From Alkalimonas sp. (GTDB lineage: Bacteria; Pseudomonadota; Gammaproteobacteria; Enterobacterales; Alteromonadaceae): a stretch of 64,000 nucleotides of DNA. The notes beneath the pieces are model-generated. The model saw only the letters and a list, made by a program, of their open reading frames with translations. It did not search any database and had not been told where the DNA came from. Where the stretch lies: contig NZ_JAFIFQ010000005.1 in NCBI RefSeq assembly GCF_020831925.1, positions 30,541-94,540 on the forward strand, written 5' to 3'. Shown here in pieces: positions 10,610 through 43,595 of this stretch. Made by a program: the position numbers and the translations under genes. Position 1 is the first letter of the stretch. Every line of letters begins with the position of its first letter.

Positions 10610-10638
10610 CTTGGATTCAGTTTTTGCTTACCCCATAT
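10610..10638 (+). promoter_or_regulatory. sigma32 heat-shock promoter of groESL
   Basis: CTTGGA-N15-CCCCATAT (consensus CTTGAA-N13-15-CCCCATNT). Confidence 0.8.
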
Positions 10639-41293: not shown

Positions 41294-42502
41294 CTACAGC
41301 TGCAGCTGTTCTGCCCAGTCAATGGCATCCAGGTAGAGCGAGCGGATGTCGGTTTGGCCAGGAATGAGCTTGCTGCTGGCTTGTTCACACAGCTGCCAAT
41401 TGGCTTGTTCATAATCTAGGATCAATTTCAGTGGCTTACTTAGCGGCCCTTGCTGCTGCAGTAAAGCCACCTTGATACTTGACTCCAGTGGCAGCTGCGA
41501 CAGTACCTGATCCAGTGGCTGCTCCAGCAAGGCATCAATCAAAGACAGCATGCCGGTTAAAAAAGCACTGGATTGCAGTTCAGTCTGGCCAGCTGCCTTG
41601 GTCACCAGATCGCAAAAGCGGGCCCGGATAATGGATAACTTGAGTAGTTCAGGTTGTTTATTTTCTGCCAGGTTGGACAGCGCAACCAGAGCGATAAACT
41701 TTTTCAGCTCGACTTCACCCATAAACACCATGGCATGTTTTAGCGACTGAATAGGGTTAGGGCGGGCGTAATAGGCGCTGTTGATAAAGCGCAGCAGCTT
41801 GTAGGATAACCCCAGATCTCGCTCCATAACCTGCACCAGCTTATCAAAATCCAGCTCCGGCTCGGCCGCTTCGGCAATCAGGGACAACAGGTGTATCTGG
41901 TGATGGCCAAGGCGTTTATGCTTGAGCATTTCGGGCCGGGCAAAGAAGTAGCCCTGAAAGTAATCAAACCCCAGCTGCTGCAGCTGCTGAAATTCGGCCA
42001 TGGTTTCAACTTTCTCGGCCAACAGCTTGCCATGAAAGTCTTTTAGCTCAGCCAGTTTCTCTGCCAGGCCCGACAGTGGGTTTTGTTGGATGTCAATTTT
42101 CAGGTAGCTGATGTAGGGCATCAGCCGCTGCCACTGCGAATGAAAAGTGAAATCGTCCAATGCGAGCTGATAGCCCTGTTCATGCAGTTCACGGCAGGCG
42201 GTGAGCAGCTCGCTGCTAAAGTGCACCGACTCCAGAATTTCAATCACGGTTTTGCTTGGATCGAGTGCGGTAGGAAATTGATACAGCAGGCTGTCTTCAG
42301 CGAAGTTTATAAAGGCCAGTTTATCGCCGGTAATGCGCTCCAGGCCAAACAGCAGATGTTGTTCAGAAAGTAGCCGACTGGTCGCTTCATCCGGATCAAT
42401 ATCCGGAAAGCGGTTTTGTGCACTATCCCGGAAGAGCAGCTCATAGCCAAGCAGCTGCTGCTCTTTGTCAAAAATGGGTTGGCGCGCCACAAAACCGTAC
42501 AT
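41294..42502 (-). CDS. EAL-HDOD domain protein (YuxH/CdgJ-like)
   Basis: VARQPIFD, GYELLFR, ALDDF, AEKVET, QGYFFARP, then helical HDOD (LSYKLLRFINSA). Confidence 0.88.
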   Translation of the reverse strand: MYGFVARQPIFDKEQQLLGYELLFRDSAQNRFPDIDPDEATSRLLSEQHLLFGLERITGDKLAFINFAEDSLLYQFPTALDPSKTVIEILESVHFSSELLTACRELHEQGYQLALDDFTFHSQWQRLMPYISYLKIDIQQNPLSGLAEKLAELKDFHGKLLAEKVETMAEFQQLQQLGFDYFQGYFFARPEMLKHKRLGHHQIHLLSLIAEAAEPELDFDKLVQVMERDLGLSYKLLRFINSAYYARPNPIQSLKHAMVFMGEVELKKFIALVALSNLAENKQPELLKLSIIRARFCDLVTKAAGQTELQSSAFLTGMLSLIDALLEQPLDQVLSQLPLESSIKVALLQQQGPLSKPLKLILDYEQANWQLCEQASSKLIPGQTDIRSLYLDAIDWAEQLQL

Positions 42503-42623
42503 GAAATGGGTTCCTTTTGCTTGCTCAGCTCAGTGTAAAGCAATTTCTTCGTGCCGTATATTACTGATGGCTATGAAGATAGCGGCCTTAGAAAAATTAA
42601 TTCTGGCAAAGCTGAAACTAAAA

Positions 42624-42650
42624 TTAGCACTCTCCGTCAAAGAGTGCTAA
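42624..42650. promoter_or_regulatory. CIRCE operator (HrcA binding site) upstream of rpoH
   Basis: TTAGCACTC-tccgtcaaa-GAGTGCTAA: 18/18 match to consensus with exact 9-nt spacer. Confidence 0.93.
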
Positions 42651-42685
42651 GATACTTTTCAATTTGAGATGGATGGAAGCCCAGC

Positions 42686-43537
42686 ATGACAAAATCATCT
42701 GAACTTATGACCCTGACCTTAGGCGCCAGCAGTAGCTTTGAAGCATATACCCAGACGGTTAGCTCCATTCCGATGTTAAGCGCGGAAGAAGAGAAAGGCT
42801 TAGCTGAGCGTCTGCATCAGCATGGCGATTTAGCAGCCGCCCGTCAGCTTATCATGTCGCATTTACGCTTTGTGGTGCACATTGCCCGCAGTTATTCAGG
42901 TTATGGTTTGCCAGTCAGCGACTTGGTGCAAGAGGGCAATATCGGCCTGATGAAAGCCGTTAAACGTTTTGACCCTTCCGTTGGAGTTCGCCTGGTTTCT
43001 TTTGCCGTGCACTGGATCAAAGCCGAAATTCATGAGTACGTGTTGAAGAATTGGCGCATTGTGAAAATTGCCACCACCAAAGCCCAGCGCAAACTGTTCT
43101 TTAACCTGCGTAAATCGAAAAAACATCTGGGCTGGTTTAGCCAGGATGAAGTCAAGCATGTTGCCGAGTCACTCGGTGTAGCCGAGCATGAAGTGCGCGA
43201 GATGGAATCTCGTATGAGCAACTACGACATGCCATTCGATGCACCCGAAGGTGATGACGACCAGGCTTACACAGCACCGGCTTATTACCTGGAAGATAAA
43301 AGCTCGGATCTGGCCAGCCAGGTGCAGGACCAGCAATCCGGTGATATGGCGCATGACCAACTGCACGCAGCCTTGCGTACCTTGGACGAGCGTAGCCAAG
43401 ATATTATCCAAGCCCGTTGGTTGGCACAAAGCAAGATGACCTTGCAGGAACTGGCCGAGCGTTATCAAGTCTCTGCCGAGCGGGTACGCCAGCTGGAAAA
43501 AAATGCCATGAAAAAGCTGCAAGCTGCGATGAGCTAA
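42686..43537 (+). CDS. rpoH: Heat-shock sigma factor sigma32
   Basis: [14 protein letters not shown] and RpoH box QRKLFFNLR. Confidence 0.98.
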
Positions 43538-43539
43538 GC

Positions 43540-43595
43540 AACCTTGGTCCATAAAAAAACCACCGCTTGCGGTGGTTTTTTTATGGACCAAGGTT
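43540..43595. terminator. rpoH terminator within a 27-bp perfect inverted repeat
   Basis: AACCTTGGTCCATAAAAAAACCACCGC-tt-GCGGTGGTTTTTTTATGGACCAAGGTT. Confidence 0.85.

Follow-up and report, generated by a model that had tools for sequence, protein, structure and literature searches.

A predicted HrcA operator laid over the rpoH promoter in the genus Alkalimonas

In Alkalimonas sp., the gene for sigma32, rpoH, is preceded by a palindrome that matches CIRCE, the operator of the repressor HrcA. This raises the question of whether HrcA acts on the sigma factor gene in this bacterium, instead of on groESL, and of how widespread such a wiring is. We addressed this question in the window, i.e., the whole 64-kb stretch of DNA analyzed, which is found on contig C95 of a 3.6-Mb assembly (134 contigs, 95% complete), as well as in the genomes of relatives.

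The palindrome and the rpoH promoter

The gene downstream of the palindrome (positions 42686 to 43537, forward strand) encodes a protein of 283 amino acids that belongs to the RpoH equivalog family, with a score of 411 bits for TIGR02392 (cutoff, 323). It is followed by a putative intrinsic terminator at 43540 to 43595, found by a terminator scan and by reading of the sequence, which is bidirectional in form and consists of a 27-bp perfect inverted repeat between A and T runs. This repeat starts directly after the rpoH stop codon and is unusually long for a bidirectional terminator, although the gene that follows (43762) has the same orientation as rpoH. On the other side of the palindrome, a gene for a 402-amino-acid EAL-like/HDOD-type protein (41294 to 42502, reverse strand), with weak matches to c-di-GMP phosphodiesterases, lies divergently between ftsX and rpoH. 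It interrupts the ftsEX-rpoH neighborhood known from Escherichia coli, and the same neighbor was found in genome G029.

The motif scan of the window placed the palindrome at 42624 to 42650, where the arms TTAGCACTC and GAGTGCTAA are separated by 9 nucleotides and agree with the CIRCE consensus at 18 of 18 positions, with no mismatch. The complete site reads TTAGCACTCTCCGTCAAAGAGTGCTAA, with TCCGTCAAA as the spacer, and the rpoH ATG is 35 nt downstream. The original prediction had described a perfect CIRCE at this place and distance, and the scan reproduced both the coordinates and the match. There was no second CIRCE with up to 3 mismatches within the 64-kb window, and none at this threshold in 100 dinucleotide shuffles of the window. 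The genome-wide search for CIRCE proposed with the original prediction returned, for the 3.6-Mb assembly, one site with 0 mismatches, no site with 1 to 3 mismatches, and nine sites with 4 mismatches. The rpoH CIRCE is the sole CIRCE of the assembly, and its location is that of an operator of a heat shock gene, before the rpoH ATG and over a conserved extended -10.

This extended -10, TGcTAAGAT (TGCTAAGAT), covers positions 42645 to 42653 on the forward strand, made up of the CIRCE right arm and the next 3 nt, and belongs to a likely sigma70 promoter of rpoH. A weak -35-like TTAGCA (42624 to 42629, forward strand), with 4 of 6 matches, may be read in the CIRCE left arm, 18 nt before TAAGAT, and a Shine-Dalgarno-like GGAAG (42675 to 42679, forward strand) can be recognized in the sequence 6 nt 5' of the ATG. 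Since a strict scan of the rpoH leader for the sigma70 -35/-10 consensus called no promoter (8/12 matches), the argument for the -10 rests on conservation across lineages. We superimposed 37 CIRCE-rpoH loci in a common register and inspected the bases that follow CIRCE, the third of which is a T in 36 loci and the second an A in 29. Because these bases are conserved, they delineate an extended -10 of the form TAAnAT, composed of CIRCE bases 25 to 27 and the next three, with the TG at CIRCE bases 22 and 23. As the right arm is part of this extended -10, the operator would lie on the promoter rather than in the leader, and bound HrcA would thus block RNA polymerase. A transcript from this promoter would start near position 42660.

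A second element of uncertain status is a sigmaE-like pair on the forward strand (42614 to 42641), in which GAAACTA (42614 to 42620) is separated by 16 nt from a TCAAA (42637 to 42641) that lies within the CIRCE spacer. Compared with a GGAACTT-N16-TCAAA-like pair of the type of the sigmaE-dependent E. coli rpoH promoter P3, its halves score 5/7 and 5/5. Seven of the nine aligned genomes contain both halves, and the other two (G002 and G003) contain neither; this joint presence or absence hints at a real second promoter, the -10 of which would be in the CIRCE spacer. Among the 37 loci, 19 carry a GGAACTT sigmaE-type module at -15/-16. This canonical module is missing from the Alkalimonas family, and the GAAACTA pair of the genus is some 6 nt out of register with it. 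The extended -10 and the sigmaE-like pair were both located over the operator as the original prediction had described them, and all other factual statements made there were likewise upheld.

Conservation of the operator and the missing hrcA

An alignment of rpoH upstream regions across relatives, which had been suggested together with the prediction, revealed that the CIRCE arms do not vary across the eight genomes of the genus plus one genome of a second genus (G025). In each case, CIRCE is about 35 nt before the rpoH ATG. The spacer occurs in 7 versions, and the flanks diverge. Each complete congener contains exactly one real CIRCE. Two further CIRCE-like matches in congeners, each with 3 mismatches, were rejected as chance matches, since one is within a porin-like open reading frame (L105) and the other at the end of an L-serine dehydratase gene (L106). 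The latter belongs to a recurrent false half-site: the end of the L-serine dehydratase gene, GAG TGC TAA (Glu-Cys-stop), equals the CIRCE right arm and was seen at about 1021 to 1047 of L106 (G002) and at about 1501 to 1527 of L114 (G110).

We then compared the presence of CIRCE with that of hrcA in a phylogenetic profile of 61 genomes (this genome and 60 relatives), to which 5 named genomes were added, giving 65 relatives besides this genome. In the 61-genome profile, CIRCE was present in all 11 hrcA-positive genomes, and 48 genomes had neither hrcA nor CIRCE. The two discordant cases, this genome and G003, are both fragmented assemblies of an hrcA-bearing genus. As for named species and genera, Pseudoalteromonas luteoviolacea has both CIRCE and a divergent hrcA, and both are absent from Glaciecola, Alteromonas, Psychrobium, and Paraglaciecola. 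At the homologous rpoH position, the latter four have kept the extended -10 (e.g., TTTGCTAAAAT or TGGTATATT), with decayed arms, and relatives without hrcA differ from the CIRCE arms by about 5 or more mismatches. Taken together, CIRCE is under selection and is co-inherited with hrcA. A point against a working operator is that HrcA of the Alkalimonas family is divergent, with TIGR00331 scores of about 230 bits in the genus, 117 to 128 bits in two other genera, and about 320 bits elsewhere. The proteins with the lowest scores, of about 316 amino acids and below the cutoff of 197, are those of P. luteoviolacea (L112) and G026, in which HrcA is divergent while the rpoH CIRCE stays perfect.

In this assembly, profile searches with TIGR00331 and PF01628 gave no match to hrcA. 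Intact hrcA genes were found in six of the seven congeners, with 226 to 234 bits (cutoff, 197), the one without hrcA being an 88%-complete assembly of 390 contigs. The HrcA of G005 falls within the TIGR00331 equivalog family (232 bits; cutoff, 197), and that of G006 matches the structure of Thermotoga maritima HrcA (PDB 1STZ; E = 2.7e-19). The gene order in the congeners is dnaJ-dnaK-oxidase-kinase-grpE-hrcA, followed by nadK-recN on the opposite strand and then by ratA and smpB. With the congener proteins as queries, tblastn gave no match in this assembly to grpE, hrcA, nadK, recN, ratA, or smpB, and of the kinase gene that adjoins grpE no more than the part for the C terminus was recovered, right where contig C92 begins. 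Two copies each of the oxidase gene and of the 5' part of dnaK were found, on the short redundant contigs C92 (4,239 bp) and C98 (3,840 bp), both of which break inside dnaK; compared with G006, the oxidase is 91 to 92.5% identical and DnaK about 99%. Strain heterogeneity or an assembly bubble may underlie this redundancy, which would account for the absence of the neighboring hrcA-grpE-nadK-recN-smpB stretch from the assembly.

The original prediction had named the lack of hrcA from the genome as evidence against it. Read literally, this is what the assembly shows. However, we rejected a genuine loss of hrcA, because the near-universal grpE, nadK, recN, and smpB are missing as well and the adjacent kinase gene is cut by a contig boundary, which argues for an unassembled stretch. 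We attribute the missing hrcA to an assembly gap and infer that the gene is present in this organism. A missing gene in an assembly of 134 contigs should not be counted as a gene loss.

Alternative readings of the site and its distribution

On the basis of these comparisons, we consider it likely that the palindrome functions as an HrcA operator and lies directly over the rpoH promoter. A relic operator, which would have outlived hrcA and persist only as the rpoH -10 in its right arm, is quite unlikely. Consistent with such a relic, the assembly is devoid of hrcA, and two genomes of other families (G091, C50, 36527 to 36553; G208, C27, 14335 to 14361) have a lone CIRCE with 1 mismatch just before rpoH and no detectable hrcA. 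These two sites are probable relics, partly preserved by the right arm doubling as a -10, and they indicate that near-perfect relics can persist. In Alkalimonas sp., however, the absence of the whole grpE, nadK, recN, and smpB neighborhood at a contig edge points to a gap, the left arm is perfect too, despite having no -10 role, and hrcA is intact in a close congener whose DnaK is 99% identical. Moreover, the relatives that lack hrcA show the decayed arms described above.

That the site serves mainly the divergent EAL/HDOD gene, or both genes, is very unlikely. CIRCE is symmetric and 121 nt upstream of the start of that gene, which is also found divergent to rpoH in G029, but the pairing of CIRCE with rpoH at a fixed short distance occurs in dozens of lineages that have no EAL/HDOD neighbor, and the overlapping -10 is oriented toward rpoH. 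It is likewise very unlikely that the palindrome acts in RNA instead of as a DNA operator, be it as a 5'-untranslated-region hairpin for mRNA stability or translation or as a terminator. CIRCE in Bacillus subtilis transcripts reportedly affects mRNA stability, and the terminator scan flagged the palindrome as a hairpin with a T-rich tail on both strands. Nevertheless, neither strand has a gene whose end lies upstream of the palindrome, so that it was discarded as an intrinsic terminator. Furthermore, in lineages ranging from beta- to gammaproteobacteria the arms are identical to the CIRCE consensus at every base and show no compensatory changes, the site tracks the presence of hrcA, and transcription from the conserved -10 of the right arm would start 3' of the hairpin.

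CIRCE at rpoH is found well beyond Alkalimonas. Of 80 rpoH loci from named beta- and gammaproteobacteria, 29 have a perfect CIRCE just before the gene, including those of Dyella, Alcanivorax, Ectothiorhodospira, Nitrosomonas, Cupriavidus, Pandoraea, and Variovorax. CIRCE at rpoH is reportedly a finding that Permina and Gelfand made in 2003 for beta- and gammaproteobacteria. The caution of the original prediction that comparative surveys may have anticipated the idea was warranted, as CIRCE at rpoH is already in print (Rodionov et al. 2004, PMC545781). Given these 29 loci and the published predictions, the CIRCE-on-rpoH wiring is a widespread, already predicted design, and the general idea is not new.

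The restriction to rpoH is a different matter. All nine named genomes tested outside the Alkalimonas family contain two or three CIRCE sites each, and G042, G051, and G093 have CIRCE at both groES and rpoH. The rpoH locus of G042 (L103; C1, 316761 to 316818), from another family of the same order, carries a tandem CIRCE pair before rpoH, one perfect and one with 1 mismatch, 4 nt apart. When the class was sampled with a single genome for each family, CIRCE was found in 98 of 151 genomes, mostly with two or three sites. There were 16 other genomes with a single CIRCE at up to 1 mismatch: in 6 of them the site is away from rpoH, 2 (G091 and G208) have it at rpoH without hrcA, and the remaining 8 also have a second site at 2 mismatches. 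In G110, the second site was dismissed as a coding coincidence, namely, the GAG-TGC-TAA end of an L-serine dehydratase gene, so that this genome has hrcA and a sole true CIRCE, at rpoH. A purely serial layout appears to be rare: of the 98 CIRCE-bearing families sampled, it would apply to the Alkalimonas family and probably to that of G110. As judged from the distribution of sites, the unusual feature of the Alkalimonas family is that rpoH would be the sole HrcA target, which makes the "instead of groESL" part of the wiring lineage-specific.

A possible, tentative scenario is that the HrcA regulon shrank to rpoH in the genus Alkalimonas, in three further genera, and in P. luteoviolacea, with hrcA being driven by sigma32 and groESL having left the regulon, and that most genera then lost repressor and operator together. 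If true, the result would be a closed two-gene loop, in which the sensing of chaperone capacity by HrcA (via GroEL elsewhere) gates transcription of the entire heat shock regulon. The patchy distribution offers a natural series for the decay of a promoter-fused operator, with both partners kept, both lost, or relic sites remaining.

The predicted circuit and its comparison with known systems

The output side of the proposed cascade is represented in the window by groES, which has a sigma32-type promoter, CTTGGAT-N14-CCCCATAT, at 10610 to 10638 (forward strand) and no CIRCE in its leader; a sigma32 promoter without CIRCE was what the original prediction had noted there. Before dnaK, contigs C92 and C98 have a sigma32-type CTTGAAT-N14-CCCCATAA and no CIRCE in the leader. 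The same was observed for hrcA-grpE, which in the congeners is behind a conserved sigma32-type CTTGTTT-N13-CCCCAGAT and in G025 is preceded by CTTGAAT-N13-CCCCATAT, in both cases with no CIRCE there.

In the circuit that we propose, an HrcA dimer on CIRCE would exclude RNA polymerase and keep rpoH transcription low, with the right arm contributing the TG plus the initial TAA of the extended -10 and the spacer possibly holding a sigmaE-type -10. Inactivation of HrcA would permit transcription of rpoH and raise sigma32, which would then activate groESL, dnaK, and, judged from the congeners, hrcA-grpE through their sigma32-type promoters. The rise of GroESL and HrcA would close a negative feedback loop on rpoH. 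With no CIRCE gene other than rpoH in the family, HrcA would stand upstream of sigma32 in a strictly serial arrangement. Elsewhere among bacteria, heat or the titration of GroEL inactivates HrcA. A titration of this kind may operate in Alkalimonas by analogy with Bacillus and Chlamydia, two of the bacteria in which the dependence of HrcA on GroEL was studied (review, PMC7053576). The cascade from HrcA via rpoH to groESL put forward in the original prediction is supported in part by the comparison of genomes: the operator is conserved and overlaps the promoter, it occurs together with hrcA in relatives, and groES and dnaK have sigma32-type promoters without CIRCE. Binding and repression by HrcA, its dependence on GroEL, and the start site are predictions, and hrcA itself is deduced to be present in this organism. 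The main uncertainty is that hrcA was not directly seen in the assembly, with the mechanism being a prediction.

The wiring of HrcA to rpoH joins the two main bacterial heat shock systems, a link that was already recognized from comparative genomics. This lineage would represent its simplest form, in which a single repressor acts through a single operator on a single sigma factor gene, with groESL regulated only indirectly. It may thus be a clean system for establishing what a transcriptional HrcA layer adds to the control of sigma32 beyond the DnaK/FtsH route.

The predicted circuit shares with the CIRCE/HrcA system of the B. subtilis type, which acts on groESL and hrcA-grpE-dnaKJ, an identical 9-N9-9 operator, a repressor of the HrcA family (in the congeners), and the overlap with a vegetative-type promoter. 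In contrast to the Bacillus paradigm, the target is a sigma factor gene, and groESL, dnaK, and hrcA-grpE have no CIRCE in the genus. A similar layout is predicted for Geobacter sulfurreducens, where rpoH has a perfect CIRCE some 50 nt ahead of its start, which places HrcA above sigma32 (Rodionov et al. 2004, PMC545781, Table 8). Geobacter, however, also has CIRCE at groESL and hrcA-grpE-dnaKJ, whereas in the genus Alkalimonas it is at rpoH only and hrcA has a sigma32-type promoter. The CIRCE-rpoH pair of G. sulfurreducens was reportedly studied further by Ueki and Lovley in 2007. With other beta- and gammaproteobacterial rpoH loci, the site has in common the operator-on-promoter module with the -10 TAAnAT, but most of these loci have GGAACTT at -15/-16, unlike the Alkalimonas family. 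In E. coli, rpoH has multiple promoters, including the sigmaE-dependent P3, its mRNA acts as a thermosensor, and the sigma32 protein is controlled by DnaK and FtsH. Alkalimonas resembles E. coli in the ftsE-ftsX...rpoH neighborhood, the sigma32-type promoters of groES and dnaK, and a possible sigmaE-type promoter. E. coli has neither HrcA nor CIRCE, whereas in Alkalimonas a transcriptional repressor layer is predicted to be added on the rpoH promoter.
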